Numbered from the whole stretch's first letter, positions 5,119 through 35,400 are shown. The stretch: DNA of 62,943 nt, filler included, from Reclinomonas americana ATCC 50394 (GCA_048213135.1; 15 parts of 15 records of this genome joined end to end with filler, not necessarily neighbours in it); one strand, 5' to 3'. The notes: a model not told the origin generated them from the letters alone. A program made the numbers and translations.

Positions 5119-8100
5119 CTACACTTTCAATCCCGACGTGCAATCCCCGCTGGTGGCACACGCCGTCGCCGTCGACGTTGCCACCACGCCACTCTTTGGT
5201 ACACACTGACCGGTGGATGTGACGTAGGTCCATGAGCCGCAGGCAGTGAGACCAGAGCAGTAGATGGAACAAGCCTGCGGCCCGGACATGGAGCTGATGG
5301 CCCACGTGAGGTCGCCACCTGGTCGATCTGCAGACAACAACCACCGCACGTCAGTAGAAGAAATGCAAAGGGCAATATGTATTGCTGGCACTGGGTTGTC
5401 TCACCAGTGCTCCTCTCGAAGGCAGGGCTGTCATACCCAACAGCACTCGTCTTCGTTCCAGACAACAAGCAGAAGCGCGTTCCGCAGAGGTTGCTTGTCT
5501 CAGCGTTTGCCGCCGATGCAGGCACATCGCTCTGTGCATATGCATACCATTCAATATTGAGTGGAGGCAACGTAACCATTACGCAGAGCTGTACATGTGG
5601 CGCCTTGCATACCTTGAGAATGCAAACTCCAACGCCCTGCGTGTTGGACGCCGCTTGCGCGTTGAGGAATGTCCAGGAGCGACATGCCGGATGCAAGTCA
5701 CACTGTCGGCAACATGCAGATTCGTGGATCGTCGCGTGGACGGCCAGCGGTGTGCCGCCCGGGCGGTCAAGTCGTTCAAACGAGCACACTTCGAGCGCAG
5801 CTGGTAGCCCGCCCCCCCACGACAACGGTGAGCAGAGTGGATCGATGACGACGAACGCGAAAACACAATCCGACTCACGGGTGATGTTACCCTCCTGCAC
5901 ATATGCTGCACCACAGGGCAATGACTGCAAAATCGCTGCAGGAACAAGCTGTCAAGTGGGGCAAACGCTCTTGCTGCAGACGCAAAGCACCAATCACTCA
6001 CTGTCCGTCAGCACCAATCGCTTGGTGAACGACAAGGCCGGTGTCCCACTGTCCGTCACTTGCACGTACACCTCGAGTCGAGACCACGCCGGCGGGGCAG
6101 AGACCAGTCGCAGTTGATTGCCACCGCTGATGCTGAACAGGCCGCCATGTGCCCCTCCAACAATGGCGAACGTAGCCGTCTGTCCTGTATTCAGATCCAC
6201 GCTGCTCAGCGTGGAAACAGTGACAGGAACGGCAGCGCTGCTGTCGTACGTCGACGACGATTGCACAATGTCACTGGGGGCCACAGAGCCTGCGACGGAT
6301 TTCAACAAGTCAGAGTTGGTAATTGCAACGTGGCCTCTTCGGGTCACCGGCCCATGAACACGTAAGCAACCGCAGCACGCACCCACAGCAAATGAGCCCA
6401 CTGCCGCGTAGCCGGAAGTCGGCGACCATCGCACACACAGCTCATATGTGCCAGTGGCGGCGGACGCCGCTCCCACCGTCAGCACAATCTGAGTCGGGCT
6501 GGTGAACGAGCTGGAGATGCTGGTATTGGCGACGGCAGTCGGAGGGCTAGTTGCCCCACACTTGGGCGTGGACAGCACGAACGCAGCGGCATCGCCAGAC
6601 ACATTCTGCATGTTTGAACCATTCACCGTGATGGCCTGTCCAGCAGCCGCGTTGACAAAGGTGGCCGACAGAGAGCTGATGGACGGAGCTGCGATGGTTA
6701 TGTTGACAATTTGAGTAATGGAACCACACATATATATAAATACACAGTAATCGCAAACTAAAAAGCTTGATGACACTAAGTACTGCACACACACCAACAA
6801 TGTTGAACGTTTGGTCAAACGACAAGCCGCCAACGTCAGTGGTGCGCACAATCACTGTCAATGTTGTTGTCACGCCAGCAGTGGCAAACTGCAGCTGATC
6901 GTTACTGCCGCCTCCGATTGTCACCTGTGCTTGATTGGCTCCGCCGGCAATTGTGTACGTGAACGTTGTCTGCCCGGCATCTGGATCGGTGGTGGACAGC
7001 GTGCCAATCGCCTGTCCCACCGTACTGGCCGGAGCGTACCAGCTGCTTGACAAGGCCACTCCGGTTGGCGCTTGATTGGTGGCTGAAGCAAAGACGAAGG
7101 CATTTGATGAGCCACATAGTATACGTCGGCCGTAGCAAGACAGGGTGGGCGACTCGTACCCGTGACGGTGAGTGTCTGGTCAAACGACAGACCACCGACA
7201 TCGGTGGTGCGCACAATGACCACCAGATTCGAGGTAAGACCAGCCGTGGCGATGCGAAGTTCATTGCCACCAGCAATGGAGAAAGCAGCAGCGTTGGCGC
7301 CACCGTTGATCGAGAATGTGAAGCTTGTCTGGCCAGCATCGGGGTCCGTGGCGTTGAGGGTGCCGATCAGCTGGTTGACCGTGCTCGGATAGGAGTAGGT
7401 ACTGCTGCTCACGCTGACGGCTGTCGGCGCCTGATTGGACGCTGCGTGCAGAACAAGCATTTCACAGCCGGTGAGTGAGCGCAATAATGACATTCACGGT
7501 TGCAAACTGCAGAGTCTGCGAAAGAAGAAAACAAGACGACGAGTGACGATCGCGACGAGCCAAGGCTCACGCACCAAAAGTGAACGTCTTCTCGAAAAAC
7601 AGCGCCCCACTGTCAGTGCTGCGAATGGTGACAACCAGGGGATCCGAGTTCACGCCGGCGTTGGCGATGAGCAGCGTGGCAGAGCTGACGTTGAACGAGG
7701 ACATGTTGGCTCCGCCGACCACCGTATAGGTGTACGTTTGTCCACTGTTCTGGTCCAGTGTGGTCATGGTGCAAACCGTCTGATTGGCCGTGGACGGCGC
7801 ATTGTACGACGTGGCGGCACAGGTGATATCGTAGGGAGTGAAGTTGGAACCGGCTACGAAGGACTGAGTCGTTCCCACCACCGTGGATGGAACGGAGCTC
7901 GTCGCCACGGGGGCGTAGTAGTAGGTCGCACCGGATACCAATCCAGACAGCGACCCAGTGATGTCTGTGGAGGTCGAGCCAGTGGTGGTGGCGGGGCTGG
8001 CATTGACAGTCCATGGGCCGATGTTGACCTTGCGGATGACGTGGGTGGTCGCGTCCGCAAACACAACCGTGCCGGTAGAGCTGTCAAACACCATGCTTGT

Positions 8101-17914: not shown

Positions 17915-19231
17915 GTCGACGACGACGAACTACTCTACTCTNNNNNNNNNNNNNNNNNNNNNNNNNNNNNNNNNNNNNNNNNNNNTTAATTAATTAANNN
18001 NNNNNNNNNNNNNNNNNNNNNNNNNNNNNNNNNNNNNNNNNTTTATCAACGATCTCGATCGGTGTTATCGTGTCAAGCTGTTCCTGCAGCGGTTCGGCTT
18101 GCACGCAGCTGTGTTGAATTCGGAGCTGCCGGCCAACTCTCGGTGAGTGGGGGGTTGTACTTACCGTGTTCACCGCCACCCACTCAAGGTCTCACGCTCC
18201 ACTCCCCGCAGCATGCACATTGTGCAGCAGTTCAACAAGGGTCTCTTCCCGTACCTGCTGGCCACCGACGAGTTCTGCTTCGAGGATGCATCGACACGGA
18301 AAACGGGCGCCTCCAAGAAGAAGAAGTCGAAGAAGGCGCAGGAGGCTGACACCGAGTACGGCGTCTCACGCGGTGTCGACTTTAAGGACATCCAGACGGT
18401 GCTGAACTTTGACATTCCACCGACCCCGAAAGCCTACACCCACCGAATCGGGCGAACGGCGCGTGCGGGAGCGAGTGGAACGGCATTGACACTGGTCGAC
18501 ATGAGGCGAGAGGAGAAGCTGTTTGCGGAAATTGTGCACACGCAGACTGGTGAGTCGCGGCGAGGCGTCGGTGGTGGTTCGTGGAGTGCGCTGACCGACT
18601 CGGGGTGTGCAGAGCGTGGTCACGAGGTGCAAATGTTTGAGGTCAATGTCGACGACGTGGAAGCGTTCCGGTATCGCGCCAGGACCGTGCTCAGCGGCAT
18701 CACGAAGAATGCGACGACGAACGCGCGTGCACAGGAGCTGAAGATTGAGATTTTGAACTCGCAAAAGCTGCAAGATCACTTCCGCGAGAACCCCGAAGAT
18801 ATGGAGGCGCTGAAGCACGACTCGCAGCTGCAGGCGCATTTGGTGACGGTGCGCTTCTCTGTCGTTGTCGTCTATTTCTTGTTTTCGCACTCGGTATCTG
18901 ACTCTACCTTGCGCGTCTGCAGCCCGACTTGAAACACGTGCCGACATATCTGCAACCGAAATCGCTAAAGCCGTCACCCCTGGAGAGTGCAATTGCCGAT
19001 TCCTTCATGGGCAAGAAGAAGTTCCAGTACAAGCGACAACGTGAGGAGAACGGCAAGTTTACCAAGAACAAGGTTGGTGCTGTGCGCTTCCTGCCCACTG
19101 TCTCTTCGTTATGCCGACTGACATGGTCTGCTCTCTGGCGCGCGCGCACACGCACACAGAGACGAAAGATCGCACCAAAGGATCCGCTGCAGACACCGGC
19201 AGAGAGGAGAGCGACTGCTCGCAAACGCTGA
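16738..19231 (+). CDS. DBP9: DEAD-box RNA helicase DBP9/DDX56
   Basis: Q-motif FESLGLD...[84 protein letters not shown] and a C-terminal DPL. These match the DBP9 subfamily. Spans a gap. Confidence 0.93.
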
Positions 19232-23098: not shown

Positions 23099-23192
23099 GC
23101 GGAGAGCGCCCGCGCGCACGTGGAGTACGTAGAGAATGAAAGCGCGCAGGACTGCTGAGAGGACATCCGCACTCCTTTTTTTTATTCTCGTC

Positions 23193-24259
23193 ATGGCCGC
23201 AGTCACGTTGCGTTCGGGCCTGTCTCTCTCACACTATGTGTCCGTCTATGCTCATGCCACGTGCTCTTCGCAGCATTGAGTACACGGTGCTCAAGCCGGA
23301 GGATGTGGATGCGGCGGCTGAGTTGTCGGGTCGGTGCTTTGGCGAGAGCGAGCCTGTGACCACTGCGTGCGGTGAGACTGCGTGGCGACAAGTGAGCAGC
23401 ATGCTCACGTTCTCATGAGGACTGTGAGCAGATGTTTCCGGCGACTACATGATTGGCTACTGGCGACCTTTTGTGGAGATTTGCTGTGCGAATGATCTGT
23501 CGGTGGGTGCGTGGGCGGTGGATGCCAGCACTGGAGAGCGTACACTGGCCGGCTGCGCGCTCAACATGCCGTACAATACCCCGGACCCGCAGGGTGAGAT
23601 GCGCGTGGAAGCAAGAGAAAAGTTTCACGCTTTTTTCATTACAAATGCATGCATGCACGTGCGCAGCGTTCATCGATTACTACGAGGCCGACCCGCAGCC
23701 AGCGGGTTCGTCTCCGTGTCCTGTGTGCTTTGTTTTTTGCTTCGTCACGCCTGCATCTCGCTCATTCGTTGCATGCGGTCAGCCATTCACGCGTGCCTCG
23801 ACTTGCTGGATGAGAACTACCACAAAGTGCTCGACATTGATCCGGCCGAGGTGCTGCTGCTGCTGGTGTATGCCGTCGACAGCCGCTTCCGTGGACGAGT
23901 TGCGTACGGGTTGCCGTTTGTTGCTTCGGTCGCCTGTGCTAACGAGAACCGTCGCCAGGGCATCGCCAACGAGCTGACGACGCGGACGTTCCAGATTGGG
24001 CGTGAGCGTGGATTCAAGCGCGCCGTGTCGCACACCTCATCTGGTGCGTGTGGCCGTCACCAAGCGATCTCGTGTGCGTGCGCTCTCATGTGTATCTGTC
24101 GTGCACGCAGCGTACTCTCGCGCGGCCATTATGCGCGCCGGTGCCCGGGAGGTAACTGCTGTGGATTATGCTACATTCGAGTTCCAGGGTACCAAGCCAT
24201 TCGCTGGACTGCCGGCTCGCGGGCACACCCACTTCTGCGTGGTTGAAGCAGCTCTCTAA
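23193..24259 (+). CDS. GNAT-family N-acetyltransferase (arylalkylamine NAT-like)
   Basis: Spliced: IEYTVLKPEDVDAAAELSGRCFGESEP...LLVYAVDSRFRGR|GIANEL (motif A)...GFKRAVSHTSSAYSRAAIMRAG. All introns are GT-AG and in frame. Confidence 0.8.
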
Positions 24260-24530
24260 TCCGGTGTCACACACATCCTCTCCTGCAATGCAGTATCGTT
24301 TCCCCTTTTGCTCCTCCCTGTACACACTCGCACTCTGGCAGTCGGCTTACTTGCCTGTGGAGGGATATGAGATGAGAGTGTGCCCACATGCCACGCACGA
24401 AGAGTGTCCACGTACCGATGCTCTTGCGATTGCGCGCTCCATCAACAACACCCGGGCCCTTATGCGAGCCGCCCGATGACGACTGGCTGCTGTCTGCGCC
24501 GCCGTGGATAAACTCTGCAAAGCAATTCCC

Positions 24531-25842
24531 TCAGCATATGATCAATGTGAGTGCAGGCTTGCGTGCACGCAGTGGCGTACCGGCAAGGAATGTGGCCAGG
24601 AAAACACGCTCCAGCAGTTGGCGATACTCATCAATCTGCAGCACACCGTCGCCATTCGAGTCAACCTCTGCGTGCAACAATGAGTGCAAGAGGAAGAAAC
24701 GCATTTTCGCCGACAACGTACTCACTCTGCATGGCCCTCGCGACAACCTGCGCGACAGTGAGGTTATGAGAGCAATGGTACTCACGGTCTTGTGAGAAGC
24801 ATCGCACTCACCTCACGGGTGGGCGCTCGCAGCGAGATGGACGGGTTCTTGGCGCAAAAATCGGTAAAGCAAATCTGCAAGAACGTCTCCACCTCGTCGA
24901 CGTTCAACGAGCCGTCATGATTCTGCAGAGGCACGGCATGTCAGCGTCGTAAAGTGTCACATGTGGTGACGGCAGTGCACGCACCGCATCCACTCGGCGG
25001 AAAATCTGCACGAGTTGCTGCTGGAAATCGGGACTGTGCATGCGGTGGTGAGCGAGCGATCTGACAAAATGAAACGAACGCACGCCCCGCACCTCTCGAT
25101 GCGCGCCATGACATGGTGGACGCTCGACATGGCCAGCCTGCACACAGCAATCAAGTGAGCGACGCAATCGTGACAGACAACAGCAGATGACGCAATCGCA
25201 ATCGCGGCGCACTTGACAAGAGACAAGTCGCCGTGCTGCTGCTGCACGGCCTTGGTCAGCAGACGCTCGGCCTCCGCGATCGGATCGTCAGCCTTACAGC
25301 ACACACAGTCAGCGCACATGTCCACCACCAACAACAACCACCGAGAGCCAGTGCGCACCAGCAGCACCGAGTTGATAATCGTTCCCATGTCCAGTGATCC
25401 CTGTCGCTGATGACTCGGCGCACCTCCTGCGCATCTCTTCCGTGAGACATGCGATATGCCATTCTCTTATCCACTATACACACACACCAGTGCTACGCGT
25501 CGCCACTTGCGTTGCCTCCGAGCCACGTTTCGTCTCCAACTGCAACATGTGAGTGAGAAGAGTGCAAATTGGATGCTCTCTCTTCACACAAGAACAGCAG
25601 CACGCAACAGCTGCTGCCGGCGCAGGCTTGCCAGAGGACGACACCACAGAGACCACATATAACACCACCATGACACCCGCTGCAGAGAGAGATGAGAGAA
25701 AGAGAGGAAGGCGCGTGACACACACACAAAGGCAGCACAAACCAAACAGCGCCAGTGCAGTGAATGGGGCGAGCACGCCCGAGTAGCCCAGTGACGCACA
25801 CGCGCCAATCGCACTCCCCAGCAGTGTAAGCTTGCACAACAT
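24531..25842 (-). CDS. Membrane-anchored EF-hand protein
   Basis: Hydrophobic N-terminal exons and two EF loops, DA|NHDGSLNVDE and DSNGDGVLQIDE. Confidence 0.6.
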
Positions 25843-25968
25843 CTCAAAGGAGGGGGGCACGCGGTCAGAAAACAGTTCGCAAGCGACAACGGCACCCCAG
25901 CGCAACAATAAGCAGGGGTACGGTACCCCAAGAAAAAGGAATTTCAGGCAACCATCATGAACACCAAG

Positions 25969-26010
<42 letters not shown>

Positions 26011-26161
26011 TAGAAGAGAGAGAGAGGAGAGGAGAGGAGAGNNNNNNNNNNNNNNNNNNNNNNNNNNNNNNNNNNNNNNNNNNNNTTAATTAATTAANNN
26101 NNNNNNNNNNNNNNNNNNNNNNNNNNNNNNNNNNNNNNNNNAGTGGCACACAGAATGCGCG

Positions 26162-29100
26162 CTACAGTCCAAGACCAGCCAGTTCAAACTCGCTGCATAT
26201 GCGTTGCAGCAACGCAGGCAACAACTGGTTGACTACGTCGGCAGTGTCGGCCACGGCATGCGCAGGCAACTTGGACAAGTGCTGCAAATTAAAAATACAT
26301 AATATCTATGAGTGTCGACAGGTTGCCACAAAGTTGGCAGCTGCGTTGATTACCTCAAGCTCGGCTTGCGCGAGAGATTTGATGGCGCGGACTTCGTCGA
26401 CAATCGCGATCCTGGGATCCGGCCGCGAATGCGAATCGACAGCACTGACCCATACGCCAGCTGCAGGCAAGTCCTCGTCGACATCCATGGCTGTCGACTG
26501 CACGTGCTGGCGTTGTGATCGCAATCGCTTGTTCCATCGTTCAGTCTGGAGATCCAACCGTTCGTTAAGCCACTGCACGCGTTCCCTCGCAGTGGCGTTA
26601 GTTAATGCGCGTGGCCACACCAGCGTCGACATCACGCGTACGGCAGGTGCCGGAGGGGGTGGAGGTGGCGGCGAAGGCGATTGCGACCGATGGACCGGCC
26701 ACTGTGGTGCCGGCGGAGGTGGAGGTGGAGGTTGAACCGACGCTGACAGAGGTCGTGAACCCGAGCTCGAACAGAGAAGCGCAAGATCCACATCGGCAGG
26801 CGAAGGCGGCAGAGACGACAATATCAATGCGAGACGCATCTCCTCGAGCTCGTCGATGGACTCCCCATCGCCAGCAGAATCCACGTCGAGTGCTGCTGCT
26901 GATTGTGAGAGTGTCCGCATCCGCGCGATGACCGCTGCTTCTCTCGCCGCCTGTTCGCCAGTCTTTCCAACGACAATCGGCGCTGCCGCAGACGTTTGCC
27001 GCCGCTTCTTGTCGCCCTCGTCAGTGTGGGCGCTTGGGCGCTTGGCAGCGGCCTTGCGTTTCCTCTTGTTGCTCGAGGACTCCTGTCCGGTGCCCTGTCC
27101 TGCATCTGTGCCGTCGCCAGCGCCGTTGCCGGTCGCCGCCAGTTTCGCGGCGCGCGCTCGTGCCGATGCTCGCAGGTGAAGTGGCAGCATCGATGCCGCA
27201 GACTTGAAATCGCGCGGAATTCGCTTTCCGCGCAGCGGACATTTCGGGTTGTTGCAAGTCAGAAACTTGGATCCTCCAGGTGGCGTCGAATAAAACCATC
27301 CACACAGGCACGTACAGGTGCTGAATGCCTCGTCCACTCTCTGCAATGTCTCGTTGTAGTCCCGCAAGCCAAGGAGGCGTGCACGACGATTTGCATTGGC
27401 ATTCTATTAATAGAAATCCGACACAAACAAAGAAAGTGAGCGCAGCACACTTGCACAACTATGCACAGTGAGAAACGACTCACTCTTCTGTGCAGCCTGG
27501 CGCTGAACTTGCCGAATGCAAAGTGCTGCGTAAACCACGCGGTCTCCTTGCCTGTCCTGCGCCGCTTTTGCGTGACACGGCCTTGTGCGTCCACGTGCGT
27601 CGTCTTGCGTGCAATGATTCGCGGCACTTGCTTGTTGAAATGGGGGACGATACATCGGCTGAAACGATGCTCTCCCACGAGGCTGTGGCGAGAAAGAAAG
27701 CCAATTGCAAGACATATTAATAAGAAAAGCCGCCCACACAAACGTGCCGACACATACAAAGCACTCCGGACACAGCGCACGCAACAACTCGACAACAAAG
27801 TTGTGGAAACCATCACGATCTCGGGCAAGTTGCGCCCACAGAGACCGTCGTAGAGCAGCGAAGTGCTTGGCAATCGTTCGAGAGGCAAATTTTCCGAACT
27901 TTGCCTGTTGGCAGTGCAGCTGTTTCAGCCGTTTCCGATACTTTCTCATGTAGAGTCGGCAGAAGGCCTTCCCAATCTCAAGCACCTCCACCCCACGACC
28001 ATCTGCGAGCACGTAGAAAGCAAGAACGATCAGTCCGACAGCTACCACACACGACTGTGGTGCAGTGAAACACTCACCGCGACCAACGGTGAGGCAAGCG
28101 AATGCAAGTCGTATTCCAGGGTCGATCGCGATAATGGACTCGAACTCTGCCATGAGCTGGCACAGCAGGACCTCATAGTCGGCTCGTGCACGTGGACGCG
28201 TACGGCCGGCGTCCACTGCCGGCTTGCGCGTCCGTTGGCGAGGTTTCGCTGATGATGCTGAAGCTGCTGCAGGTGGCGCAGAACCTGCGGGAACACGGCC
28301 ACGATCTGTGACCTCGGCAGCCGTTGGAGCAGTAGCAGCAGTCGGAGCAGCAGTCGGAGCAGTCTTAGCAGAACGCGGCAGGTTTTTGCGGTACTCAGTC
28401 TCCACGTGCAGACCGTCCAGGGCCGAGAGATGCAGAGCAGCCAACTTGTGGCGAGCGTGGCGATTAGCCCACGCTCCACGCGCAGCCGCCTGCTGACTGG
28501 TGATGACGGAAACTGGTGTGCGCATTGCGTCGTCCCACGCCACTCCGGCGACGAGCACCTCCCCCAGGTAAGTCGCTCCGTCCAGATCTGCTTTTGCTAG
28601 CAAAGCGCGTAGCAGCAGCGCACGGACAAAGATATCGGCGTCCGCATCTGCGGGGTAGTAAACTGTATGTGAATGGCCACTGATAACCAGCGCATCACCG
28701 GCCGGCACACACTCACCTCGCTGTCGACAGTGAACAAGGCGCTCCAGACAATCGCGAGCGTGTGCGGACTTGCATTCGTCCTCGAGCCAGAGAATCATAT
28801 CCTCCCAGATTTCTCCAGAACGCAAGTCAAATGCCGCCGCCGCTCGGCCAACGCCATCCCCCGTGTACTTCACAAACCACCTTGGCGCGAACGCCGTTGT
28901 GTCGATGTGCATGCGGAGTCGCCCGCGCAAATCATTGGCTCGCCGTGGCTCAAGCAGGAATCGCTGAAGGCAAGCGAGTCGTCGGCATTCAATGGTTTGA
29001 ATGGCAATTAGCGCTGCAAAACAGGTGATTAACAGCGATTAGTTTGATCATTGAGGGTCGCTTGCAGTGGGCAAGATATATAACGCGCACCAACTTCAAG

Positions 29101-30849
29101 CCGGATGGAAGCAAGGCCAACTGCAGCGTCGTTACAATTGAACTTGATATCGATCTCGCTGCGCACGCTCTCCGGAGAAGATTCAAGCTCGTCATCGGAG
29201 CTGACAGCAACGACCAGGGACCGCAATCCAAGAAGCGCAATGCATCGAATCTGAGAGACACTCGCTGCGTGCGAAAACACAAAACTTAGCACAAGACGTA
29301 TTACACATCACTCCGCTTTCCTGTTGTCTCTTACGATCTTCTCTCCGCCATTTCGCACTCCATGTCTACTTCATCTTCCTCCGCTCTGCGTCTCTCCCCC
29401 CACCTCTTCCTGAGTCCCCAATACCGCTACCACTACGCTCACGTACCAGCAACAGCGTGGCGAACTTGCAGTGTGTTGGTCAAAGTCGTCATTGCTGTGA
29501 GTGCATTTCGAGCAGCGTCCTCCACCAGCCAACCAGCAGCGCGATAAAGTACATCGGCGTCTGCTCCTCCGACAAAGAGCGAGAGAACAGAGACATCACG
29601 ATCGTCGGTCAGCACGCTATGCGGCAGGTGGCGGTGCTCCAGATCCAGATCCTCCTCCGCCGTCATCTCCAGCACCTTGTGTCGTGCGTCAAACAGAAGA
29701 TGTCGCATCCTCGTCAGCCGACAGCCTGCAATAATCGCACGCAACGAGTCGTGCGCCACCGACGAGACAAACTCCGCAAGAGACAGAGACAGTGGGCAGC
29801 CTCGTAAGAACACGCTGTACATCGCCGCACGCGCTGACTTCGCATCCGTGCCGCTGGGTTCAGACGCGACAAAATGACTGAGCGCAAACGCAGACGCCTC
29901 GGTGGCAACACTCCAGAGTGTCTGGCCAGCTGCAGCGAAGAGGGCAGTCGACAATTGCCGCACATCATCACTCGCTACGAGTGTATCAACAACCAGCTTG
30001 TCCAGTACCGTGATTAGCAACTCGCGGCTTTTTTCTGTACATGTCATGTCGACCATCGATCAACAACGAGTCAGTGAACAGGGGAATAAATGACGAATCG
30101 CACACACACATACGCGCGCTGCGTACCCTCCTCGCCCTCGCGGCAACTGGGGCATTCCTTGGCGCACTCCAGCCGTTGAGTCAACGCAGTGACTTTACGC
30201 GTTCGGATCGCGGACTGTGCGTGCAGCATGCCGGCTGCGTCTTGGTAGACATTGGCCACGGCATCCAGCACTGCCGACGTCCATCGCAACCAAGCGGTGG
30301 TGAATGTGACGCCGGCTTGAGCGCGAGCAGATTCGTGAAGGAAGGTGCGCATTCTGTTTCTAACAGCGGTCCGAAACGCGACAAAGGCCTCGCCTATCCA
30401 TCGCACAGTCGAGTGTAAGAAAAATGGCTCTGCACAACTCACCAGCAAACAATTGCAACATACCACACTCAGTCGAATGCACGCCATCGATTCCGGTAGC
30501 CATGCTGGCGAACAGCAAAGAAGCGGCTACAACTTTTTCGAGTGCGTTGATGCAGCGAAGCGTGTCATCGCGGTGCTTCTGTGTCAACGGCGTGGTGACG
30601 ATCCGGTTGACAGCCGACGGCACGACATGCAGCGTCGCACACAGCAGCGTGTGTAGTGACCAGCTGTCGCCCTCGCTCTCCGCAGCACCGTGGCCAGCAA
30701 GCGCGTCGTCGAACCATGGGGCGTTGGTGCCCAGCCGCGCGTGCAACAGTCGGAGACCGTCGCAGAGTTGTTGTCGCAAATCGGTGCGTGCCGGCATGCA
30801 GGCTCCCGCAGGCACACCGGCAGCAGTTGGAGCTCGAGATGGTGGGAGC
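26162..30849 (-). CDS. Giant intron-containing Fanzor2/TnpB-like RuvC nuclease (5' incomplete, about 1,320 codons or more)
   Basis: Predicted exons 30849-30464, 30429-30127, 30034-29447, 29264-29091, 29013-28078, 28002-27786, 27682-27484, 27403-26354 and 26281-26162 join in one frame through GT-AG introns. Motifs: RuvC-I IIAIDPGIR, bridge region DGFHNF, CIVPHF, HFAFGKFSARL, RuvC-II VDEAFSTCTCLCG, GGSKFLTCNNPKC and RuvC-III RDFKSAASM. Confidence 0.85.
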
Positions 30850-32448: not shown

Positions 32449-35400
32449 GCGTCGGGGCGGCGGGGGCAATCGGTGCGTCATCTGTGTGGTGGAAAAGAAC
32501 GGAGCAGGTGGATGAGACACTGATATTCAAAAGAAGCAGATGGTTCCCTTCTCCCTCTCTCACTACCACTCCCCTCTCCTCTCCTCTCCATTTCTTTCCC
32601 CTTTCCTTTCCGCCCTTTCACGCAACTGGTGTTGTGAGTGGTCTGAGTGATCGGGCCAGCAGCCATGGCCGAGTTGGTCGACGTGGCAGTGGCGTACACC
32701 TGGTACGTGTACGACGTGTTGGCTGTCAGCGTAGTGTCGGCAGTGTAAGCGGCGGTGGTTGCCCAGCCAGCCGGCAGGGTCACCGTGCCCACAGACACCG
32801 GGGTCGCGCTGCCCTGGCCGCGGAAGATCGTGAACACCGTCACGGCGTTGGAGCCAAAGTTCTGCGGCGGAATCGTCCACTGCAGGAAGATGTTGGTCAG
32901 GCCGTACTGCGTCACCACCAGGCTGGTCGGCGCGTTCGGCACCACACCGCTGGCAGCGCTAGCCGGAGTGGTGAAGTTGACCGACGAGCTGAACGCGCAC
33001 GTCACTGGGTTGGCGGTGGTGCCAGCCGGGTTGAAGGGCGACGTCGTGAAGGCAATCGAGAACTGGTTGCTGGCGCGCACGTGCACCTGTACGTTGACCG
33101 AGGTGCCAGCCGGCAGGCCGGTCACGTCAATGTAGTAGGTCGACAGGTTGTTGTTCCACGACGCCGCAGCGCCAGTGCCGTTGGTGGCCGGGATGGAGCT
33201 GGTGTCAATGGCGACAGCGGTGCCGGCAGTGGCAGCAGTCACCGAAGAGGCGCTGGTGGTGTTGTACATGTACGTCACACGGTAGTTGACGTTCGGAGTC
33301 GGAGTCGTCACGTTGCTCTGCGTGGCGCTCGAGGTGGCGGTGTTGGAGCCGCCGACGCTGATCGGGGTCGAGAAGTTGAGGCGCACGCCAGTCGAGAACA
33401 GGCGCGAGTACGCCACACCAGTGGGCGCAGCCGGCACTGCACCGTTGTTGTCGGTGGTGGCCTGGATGGAGCCGGCCGCCGAGGCAGTGGTGTTGCTGTT
33501 GACGGTGACGCGGATCTTGGTCGTGTACTGCGTGGCAGCCACAAAGTTGTTGGCGGTGCCGCTCACAGTGAAGCCGGTGATCTGCTGGTAGAAGCCAGAG
33601 GTGTACGAGAACAGGCCGTAGAACGAGGTGGCGATGTTGCCGTTGCCAGTCGCGCCGGTGGTGATGGCAGGCTGGTCAGTGCTGGCGTTGGTCACCGTGT
33701 AGGCGGCAGACGGCGCAGCGGTGGTGTCGCCAGTGCCAAAGGTGGCCGGGTAGTTGAAGGCGACGACAGAAGACGTCGAAGTGACCTGGTCCACAGAGCC
33801 AGTGTACGGGGCGCCCCGACTGTGTAGCCAGTCGGCGTGGCCGGTGCACCCAACGCCAGAGTCACAGTCACGGCGGTCGAGAAGGTCAGGTTGGCACCGT
33901 TGGCGCCTGGAGTGCCGCTGCCGTTGTTGTAAGCCGTCGAGATGGCGCAGCTGGTGCCAGTCAGGCCAGTGACCTTGACGAGCACGCGGTTGCGCGACAG
34001 ACCAGAGCTGCCGGCCGGGATGCCAAAGTCGGTCAGGTCGGCAATGCTGGTGACCACCGTCACCGCACCGGTGCCGCAGTCCGACTTGACGTACCACGAC
34101 GGAGCGCCAATCACACCCACATTGGCCGCCACACTCCCACTCCACCCACGTCGAGGTCGACGTGACGTAGCGCAGGTTGGACGACAGCGTCGGTGCCGCT
34201 GTCGACACCTTGGTGTTGTCAGAGCCGCTGGTGGCCAGAGTGCCGCTCCAGACCGCAGCCGAGCGGTTCACCAGCGACTCAGTCCACACGTTGATGGTGT
34301 AGCCTTGGTCAGTGGAGGCACTGGCGGCCGCAAGAGTGGCCAGAGTCACACCGCGTCACGTGACAGACGACGCGTCGGTAGCGGTCACAGTGGTGGGACC
34401 AGCGTCGCCGATGACGAACGCGCGCGCGGTAGGCGGTGGTGCCGGTGGCGAGGTTGGTCGTCTGCAGCACGGTGAGCGACGTGTTGATGTCCTGGAAGGT
34501 GCTGGCAGAGGCACCGGGGGTCTGCGACGAGAGACCGCCCTGGCCGACAAGGTCAGTCGGCAGCTGCAGCCAGATGGTGGCAGTGGTGCTGCCAATGTAG
34601 TAGATGGCGTTGGAGCCGGCAGTGGCGGCCGGACCGCGGGCTGTTTAGGAGGGAAGAGGGGAAGGGGAATGACGGTGAGCATGAAGGAAACAAAGAGAGA
34701 GAGAGAGAGAAAAGAGAACGATAATAAAAAGGTGCGCAACTGGTGCAGTCCAGAAGTTGACAATACCGCCAGCAGTCGGCGAGGCGGCGGCGGAAGCGTT
34801 GGTGCTGGCGGCGTTGAAGGCAACCTGCGGCCAGTATTGGCGGCCGGGGAGGAGGCCAGAGAGGGTGGCCTGCAAGCCGTCGAGGTGGGCAGTGGCGGGC
34901 TGGTTGCTGTTGGCCGTGGTGGTGAGGCCCCTCGCGACAGCGACACGCGCACGTTGGCAGTGCCAGTGGCCGTGAAGGTGTAGGCGCTGGCAGCCGACGA
35001 GGCGTTGACGTTGGCCTGGTTCGCGGTGTACGACGCACCACCGGCGGTCAGAGTGATGACGAACGTCAGCGAGGTGTCGGTGATGTCGACGACCGAGATC
35101 GCGTTGGCGGCGGCGAGGGCACCATGGTACCAGCATTGCTGCCGGCACCGGTGGGGACGACACCAGCACCGCTGGAGGCGACGACGTTGGCAGCGCAGCA
35201 GTGCAGCTGCACGGCAGTGCCACTGTTGATCAGAGTCCAGTTGACGCTGACAATGGCGGTGTCCGACGGAGCAGAGCGAACAGCCACAATAAACTTGGAA
35301 GCGCTGAGGACAGATTGCGTGGAGTTGCCGTCGACGAACACGAAGTCAGTGACAGCGCTAGCCACGCCGTTGTTACCGGCATTGGTGCCGGCAAAGATAC

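Follow-up and report, generated by a model that had tools for sequence, protein, structure and literature searches.

A long, loosely conserved C-terminal tail in a Fanzor-like nuclease family of Reclinomonas americana and a candidate guide locus at a repeated downstream terminus

Characterised Fanzors end just past the RuvC-III motif, and a short guide locus adjoins the gene. It has been reported that known Fanzors carry nuclear localisation signals (NLSs), which are predicted in about 60% of them and of which the N-terminal ones were tested, and that their guide RNA is derived from non-coding sequence 3′ of the gene, where the element has its right end (PMC10530073). The signature of the group is a DPG motif together with a Glu six residues before the zinc finger (10.1101/2023.08.09.552727). 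The Fanzor2 protein ApmFz2, or ApmFNuc (mimivirus L79, PDB 9b0l), has an N-terminal NLS in a disordered extension and ends 9 residues past the stretch matched here (511 of 520), and its conserved 3′ non-coding region reaches the element end with a 3′ RNA of about 200 nt (PMC10530073). The Fanzor1 gene CrFNuc of Chlamydomonas, borne on a Helitron2 element, is spliced; its guide RNA maps to the 3′ UTR, and extra copies of the RNA end occur without the gene (PMC10530073). In bacteria, the element end of the IStrons (IS607/IS605) combines the omega-RNA with the 3′ end of a group I intron that splices itself, and the uses of this end as guide scaffold and as splice site are mutually exclusive (10.1101/2023.11.20.567912; PMC13565253).

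Like ApmFz2, the gene studied here has a DPG motif in RuvC-I, a shifted Glu and the RD of RuvC-III, an NLS-like signal in a predicted disordered extension and, in its family, conservation of the 3′ non-coding region as far as the end of the element. Unlike ApmFz2, its predicted protein continues for 300-324 residues past RD, the basic signal is C-terminal, the 3′ region of its paralogues spans 0.35-2 kb with intron-like pieces, and no IS607 resolvase was found. With CrFNuc it has in common a gene that is apparently spliced and many termini that are not tied to a core; in contrast to CrFNuc, neither a Helitron helicase nor a consistent CTRR end was seen at the element, and no Fanzor1 structure appeared in 8 PDB matches to E 10. 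In the available part of PMC10530073, nothing is said of introns within the 3′ non-coding sequence of CrFNuc. A Helitron or Replitron identity of the element (PMC10288648) was considered. As in IStrons, the element end possibly serves as both scaffold and splice site, but the signals are spliceosomal (GT-R-AG donor, branch pentamer and AG) and splicing is read from DNA only. In the accessible portions of the literature, no account was found of a Fanzor that has a long tail at its C-terminus or a ubiquitin-binding motif, or whose guide region is spliced, and supplementary Fanzor tables may list long-tailed members.

The window, that is, the whole stretch of DNA that was analysed, comprises 62,943 nucleotides, filler included, of R. 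americana ATCC 50394 (GCA_048213135.1), in which 15 parts are joined end to end and need not be neighbours in the genome. Contig C3794, which occupies 26142-30849 of the window, carries the gene on its minus strand. Its minus-strand frame from 27403 to 26309 is open for 365 codons, and this single exon holds the RuvC-II Glu, a four-Cys zinc finger and the RuvC-III RD, followed by 300 stop-free codons, so that the tail measures 300 residues between RD and an in-frame TAG. No stop-free frame of that length arose in 2000 base shuffles, and the remaining five frames across the tail contain 2-6 stops. In a sequence-only reading made earlier, NLS-like, ubiquitin-interacting-motif (UIM)-like, weaker repeat, polyproline and helical modules had been described in the tail. 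All of them were located in this frame on the minus strand (Table 1); the UIM-like motif exists as well, but the position first given for it, 26815-26865, is 5 nt off. Runs of six or more Pro are found 11 times in the six frames of the window.

Table 1. Positions of the features discussed, in coordinates of the window
Feature	Position	Strand	Basis or remark
Locus-specific flank directly past the terminus, candidate guide region	25828..25851	-	flank varies between copies
Conserved terminus, candidate right end and omega-RNA scaffold, two 7-bp stems	25852..25947	-	repeated in genome
Branch-point-like pentamer	25864..25868	-	17 nt before end of C run
Contig joint: 44 N + six-frame stop linker + 44 N	26042..26141	.	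filler, not real distance
Predicted last exon, 39 codons + stop	26162..26281	-	
Predicted 72-nt intron with in-frame stop	26282..26353	-	splice score, GC
Two predicted helices, probable C-terminal helical bundle	26354..26593	-	AF2 helices 272-306 + 330-364
Tail exon, 285 codons, mostly low-complexity, predicted disordered	26354..27208	-	
Helical stretch	26522..26593	-	AF2 helix 272-306, pLDDT about 74
Possible in-frame 69-nt intron, rival	26573..26641	-	score 13.2, chance level; exon-like GC 0.62
Two P7 runs (26711-26731 and 26651-26671)	26651..26731	-	
Weaker UIM-like repeat	26765..26794	-	
UIM-like helix, acidic patch + M-x-x-A-L-x-x-S, ends in Pro-Pro	26810..26860	-	
Bipartite NLS-like basic clusters, KRKRK ... 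KR ... KKRR	26993..27070	-	
RuvC-III RD	27209..27214	-	invariant in 11/11 aligned cores
Four-Cys zinc finger (TNB)	27239..27310	-	alignment A1 + PF07282
RuvC-II Glu, Fanzor-type shifted, six residues before zinc-finger Cys	27329..27331	-	alignment of cores
RuvC-I DPG motif (catalytic Asp), upstream of tail	28115..28123	-	direct reading

First of all, the core points to a Fanzor-type RuvC nuclease with an intact triad. The DPG motif and the position of the intron that follows it are the same in paralogues, the RuvC-II Glu and the zinc-finger Cys correspond to E24 and C31 of the core alignment A1, and Glu, four Cys and RD are all kept in every one of 11 aligned cores. When the RuvC-II/III exon was used as the query, 17 core matches were obtained among 27 candidates in the 108-Mb genome. 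PF07282 (TnpB zinc-ribbon) gives the window core alone an E value of 0.013 and 16.1 bits, below the cut-off of 26.3. A profile of the core family finds ApmFz2 (9b0l) as its best match among solved structures (E 0.0013), so that the closest structure to the family is a Fanzor2, and it matches 37 database representatives, of which 6 were discarded as multi-stretch artefacts and 31 single-stretch matches were kept; of those scanned with PF07282, 13 of 14 passed, and an IS607 resolvase fusion is among the matches. The profile, on which any leaning to Fanzor2 over Fanzor1 would depend, spans 76 positions only. The order expected of a Fanzor, a zinc finger and then the RuvC-III Asp, with homology to TnpB, is thus present. 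Pfam has no match for the upstream exons, where the N-terminal WED/REC lobe of a Fanzor would be expected, a single-sequence PDB search returned no relative, word-indexed protein searches with the core alone and with alignment A1 against longer proteins gave no score, which says little, and the ESM Atlas yielded for the RuvC-I region unnamed clusters and one OrfB_IS605 row at 0.90 only and nothing usable for the tail.

Further upstream, the minus-strand frames at 29442-30848 and 29014-29358 are probably additional exons of the same gene: 29090-29014 and a stretch near 29334-29265 are strong candidates for introns, and two paralogues share the short IEPRR/LEPRR motif of these frames. A second copy of the gene on contig C8392 is 96% identical across 27407-30849. 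In the 430 codons of four nuclease exons, the two copies are set apart by 10 synonymous and 5 non-synonymous changes; in the frames further upstream there are 5 synonymous and 12 non-synonymous changes and one cluster of 7 changed codons, with no synonymous excess. A repeat with a sharp end of its own interrupts the C8392 copy: it sits at a TTAA of the intron that precedes the RuvC-II exon. This repeat (C8392, 1-1567, minus strand) has 12 genome matches, and its end, which starts with AGGGAC, adjoins TTAA in four copies and N in a fifth. It holds a frame of 307 residues in which a basic motif resembles an AT-hook and Pfam finds no match; TTAA and the purine start recall Kolobok elements. That C8392 is merely an allele of the window copy was proposed and is weakened by L072, in which the same terminus is followed by a different flank.

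As for the surroundings, the window at 18042-19230 (plus), 23190-24220 (plus) and 24250-25470 (minus) contains intron-rich host genes in which stop-free in-frame introns are common; by their motifs we take these neighbours to be the C-terminal half of a DEAD-box helicase, a GNAT-like acetyltransferase and an EF-hand-like protein. A 625-residue Thr/Ser/Ala-rich frame at 32449-34355 (minus) has a close relative in C40 (88% at the DNA level).

The 72-nt intron proposed at the 3′ end is the highest-scoring GT-AG pair of the tail, holds a stop and has a GC content of 0.39 against 0.63 in the tail exon, but its score of 13.7 lies inside the codon-shuffle background (14.4 +/- 2.6); the splice model, trained on 19 introns hand-picked from the window, cannot separate it from this background. 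It could be supposed instead that much of the tail is untranslated, being made up of hidden in-frame introns or of 3′ UTR read through by chance. In-frame stop-free introns are common in the neighbouring genes, and the 69-nt candidate reaches much the same score as the 72-nt intron that was accepted; its donor and acceptor resemble those of the curated intron 24580-24515, and its use would shorten the helical motif by its first 7 residues. Yet the open frame has no equal among the shuffles, no GT-AG pair of the tail reaches the curated-intron median (13.7 vs 20.2), and paralogue C5 has a tail to which the proximal 107 residues of this one can be aligned (score 77, p 0.001), which makes an untranslated tail very unlikely.

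Positive evidence for translation comes from the paralogues. Those that seemed short run on past an intron into a further exon with polyproline and basic clusters; when 9 paralogue tails were gone through one exon at a time, runs of four or more Pro were found in 7 and basic NLS-like clusters in 6, 3 being without them. Because both features recur in paralogue tails, the tail is a family trait. The paralogues without a tail that would have told against the sequence-only reading did not turn up; quite the opposite was found for the tail as a whole, though for the UIM this comparison went against the reading. Among near-identical paralogue copies, each of the 12 indels in tail exons has a length divisible by three, and past the stop this holds for 3 of 24 (Fisher p 4e-7; the tally, made by hand, excludes gaps at the ends, four indels beyond an N run and one in the tail intron, any indel upstream of the core, and the L016 pair); 6 of the 12 come from subfamily L058-L062, which is tied in through downstream DNA alone and whose contigs do not hold the core. 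Since tail indels between near-identical copies keep the frame, the tail is probably translated. No second copy of the window tail was found in the assembly, and its constraint is therefore borrowed from the paralogues. Another frequent difference between near-identical copies (L008-L016, L054-L062) is the duplication of short palindromes, by 4 or 6 nt; the 6-nt ones survive in coding exons, the 4-nt ones outside only.

The tail is a real, loosely conserved extension of a Fanzor-like family. It was also true, as supposed, that TnpB and Fanzor proteins usually end soon after RuvC-III and that this gene does not: in the 31 single-stretch database matches the residues after the core have a median of 20 and a maximum of 108, many of these matches being fragments or unspliced frames in which eukaryotic tail lengths may be understated. 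Apart from the proximal tail shared with C5, the paralogue most similar also in the RuvC-I exon, tail sequences of the family are unalignable. The predicted last exon does not resemble the C-ends of paralogues. The window copy, C5, L003 and L009 have helical C-ends; those of L003 and L009 are alike (p 0.005), and homology of the window C-end with C5, L003 or L009 is not significant (p 0.11-0.95). An AF2 model of the 365-residue frame (pLDDT 51) has no Foldseek match at E<=0.001. The C5 C-end is modelled as three helices (pLDDT 64), its best structural match (Z 10.8, rmsd 3.4, 93 aligned) is a generic bundle, and no BAG or GAT domain is among the best 50 matches listed. In C5, a frameshift lies just before the RuvC-III RD (5730-5745, minus strand).

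A classical bipartite NLS consists of two basic clusters with a linker of 10-12 residues. The basic clusters in the window tail are spaced by 9 or 14 residues, and the monopartite pattern K-K/R-x-K/R is met three times. Two basic clusters of four or more were given by only 2 of 5000 tail shuffles, and together with the paralogue count, from which a basic cluster in the L002 tail was dropped as lying in another frame, this bears out the NLS-like signal of the sequence-only reading. As NLSs are reported in known Fanzors, such a signal is to be expected here and only its place is unusual; like tails of its relatives in the genome, the tail probably carries a nuclear import signal.

The claim that the nuclease had gained a ubiquitin- or chromatin-reading module did not hold up in the same way. 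It supposes that the tail contains a functional, perhaps tandem, UIM by which the nuclease would read ubiquitylated chromatin or repair sites. In its favour, the motif has an acidic patch followed by the core hydrophobic-x-x-Ala-Leu-x-x-Ser, of which hydrophobic-x-x-Ala-x-x-x-Ser is found in host UIMs too; AF2 predicts a helix at 183-196; and host UIMs likewise sit in Pro-rich, low-complexity stretches. On a matrix built from seven host UIM matches the motif scores 10.9 bits, rank 4 of 86,669 windows, where host UIMs that were left out score 18.9-31.7 bits in six of seven cases and 11.9 in the seventh; the score is equalled by 30 of 2000 full shuffles (p 0.015) but also by 102 of 2000 local-block shuffles (p 0.05). 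A UIM-type regular expression, written after the motif had been seen, was matched by 44 of 5000 tail shuffles and in none of the 9 paralogue tails. In the Pfam scan (PF02809 and PF23625), pieces of 365, 290, 45, 33 and 30 residues gave no UIM or UIM_2 match at E<=10, whereas both of two host UIMs cut to 30 residues were detected (E<0.001, 19.5 and 20.5 bits). Only 18 candidates of the genome were scored, 15 of them UIM matches, and the window motif is not one of them. The UIM consensus has an acidic residue at Ser+3 (PMC5409130); the window motif has Pro there and its helix is broken by Pro-Pro, although several host UIM matches are also without an acidic Ser+3. The weaker repeat is outside the five best host-matrix windows and has no Pfam match, and a predicted complex of the peptide with the genome's own ubiquitin scored 0.02, which, lacking folded controls, speaks neither for nor against binding. 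A ubiquitin reader is accordingly unlikely, and the UIM-like helix is probably no more than a borderline resemblance, confined to the window copy.

Past the stop, the contig of the gene breaks off, and its probable continuation is seen in paralogues, in which the equivalent stretch consists of 0.35-2 kb of conserved non-coding DNA. There, common non-coding segments are parted by GT/GC-AG intron-like pieces at matching positions, the distance from stop to terminus is 0.35 kb in C9557, 1.66 kb in C444 and about 1.9 kb in C6892, and the region ends sharply in either of two related termini. None of the inner segments was found in the window. On the far side of the joint, on the strand of the gene, 25852-25945 matches the C444 terminus with 72% identity over 94 nt (E 3.6e-8). 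Contig numbers match real order elsewhere, as C8812/C8813 and C5049/C5050 each continue one element, so physical linkage of gene and terminus across the joint is plausible.

This terminus of about 100 nt occurs about 20 times in the genome: there are 11 DNA matches, and a pattern gave 22 matches against 0 in the control, one of which (L108) is unrelated and was dropped. Of 12 copies that were aligned, 11 show a sharp boundary. As RNA, the terminus folds with a z of -2.9 (1 of 200 shuffles as good) into two 7-bp stems in which 97.9% of the positions pair, though 0 of 14 pairs changed on both sides. The flanks differ between copies, even in the 97% identical L072. The terminus lies on the same contig and strand as the core and downstream of it in C444, C40 and C9557, which are unbroken there, and follows the core across a joint in C5513/C5514; around termini, a core was met in only 1 of 28 further loci scanned. 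Rfam has no match for the terminus and nothing credible otherwise. At about 1480-2340, L069 (C579) and L070 (C187) carry distal non-coding segments and the terminus with no Fanzor core within about 20 kb upstream (partly N), and are possibly non-autonomous or internally deleted elements. In L104, L107 and L109-L112 the C runs before the flank are longer by 3-19 C, perhaps through slippage or tailing.

Of three places suggested for the guide, the tail itself was tried and rejected, for comparison of the tail with segments A, B and C gives z<=1.3 and no profile match under E 3. Supply in trans is also disfavoured, and the guide locus is most likely downstream, in and beyond the gap. The terminus fits a right end with an omega-RNA scaffold as in known Fanzors, and the flank past it is a candidate guide region.

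The terminus might, on the other hand, be a DNA-level transposon end only, the guide being lost or supplied in trans and the gene a passenger on its way to decay or domestication. The lack of covariation and the inverted 7-bp repeats, which fit protein-binding sites, agree with that, the four G4-T-R-C repeats of the terminus could be transposase sites at the DNA level only, shuffles of the inner segment C, conserved as it is, fold as well as the segment itself (z -1.4, -0.05 and -0.7), and broken copies exist (C8392 interrupted, C5 frameshifted). Against it, the triad is invariant in all 11 aligned cores, the nuclease exons show a synonymous excess, and segments B and C outscore RuvC exon DNA between subfamilies (114 and 106 vs 54, L010/L008), which leaves this reading quite unlikely. 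A search of the window, and of about 100 kb (some of it N) upstream of other copies, brought up neither a left end nor an inverted terminal repeat; no target duplication or transposase was found either.

The element end also has features of an intron end. A branch-type pentamer stands at -17 in 19 of 21 termini and varies among three host branch forms, AG follows the C run after 0-3 nt in 12 of 21 (background 0.22, p 5e-4, where some copies may be alleles), and a strong donor lies 151-203 nt upstream in 11 of 21, most others being cut by contig ends; in the window copy, the first AG is 7 nt away. Shared descent accounts for part of these signals, and the AG after the terminus could be a target-site preference instead. 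A doubtful possibility is that the elements are a spliceosomal counterpart of IStrons, in which a Fanzor with a tail of 300 residues in eukaryotic style would have its guide made from a multi-exon non-coding 3′ transcript and the scaffold placed in its terminal spliceosomal intron. The last ~200 nt, scaffold included, would then be an intron whose 3′ splice site is the end of the element itself, and splicing there would cut the scaffold from the guide or release it in a lariat. With scaffold and guide separated in this way, the amount of active nuclease would be governed by splicing in the host. Should the terminus indeed work as a splice site, a guide RNA controlled by the spliceosome would be a novelty.

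In summary, the preferred reading, to which we give a probability of about 0.6, is that a family of mobile elements carries a Fanzor-type RuvC nuclease whose gene is rich in introns, that the tail extends this nuclease at its C-terminus, and that RNA from the 3′ end of the transcript guides it. The element family would have many diverged members in the genome. Its tail would be translated and evolve freely as a disordered Pro-rich linker that keeps its frame, usually bears a basic nuclear-import signal and, in some members, ends in a helical bundle; nuclear import and flexible tethering would be its most likely jobs. The guide RNA would lie not in the tail but at the far end of a long non-coding 3′ transcript, which may cross the contig joint, reach the terminus at 25852 and then take in about 15-20 nt of flank, as in known Fanzors, and the nuclease would bind this RNA and use it for cleavage.

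Long frame-constrained tails and an element end up to 2 kb away, behind intron-like segments, would show how far an OMEGA nuclease can be adapted to an intron-rich host. So distant an end would also account for guide loci being overlooked when a eukaryotic assembly is fragmented, and the located terminus opens the guide, the TAM and the activity of this family to direct testing.
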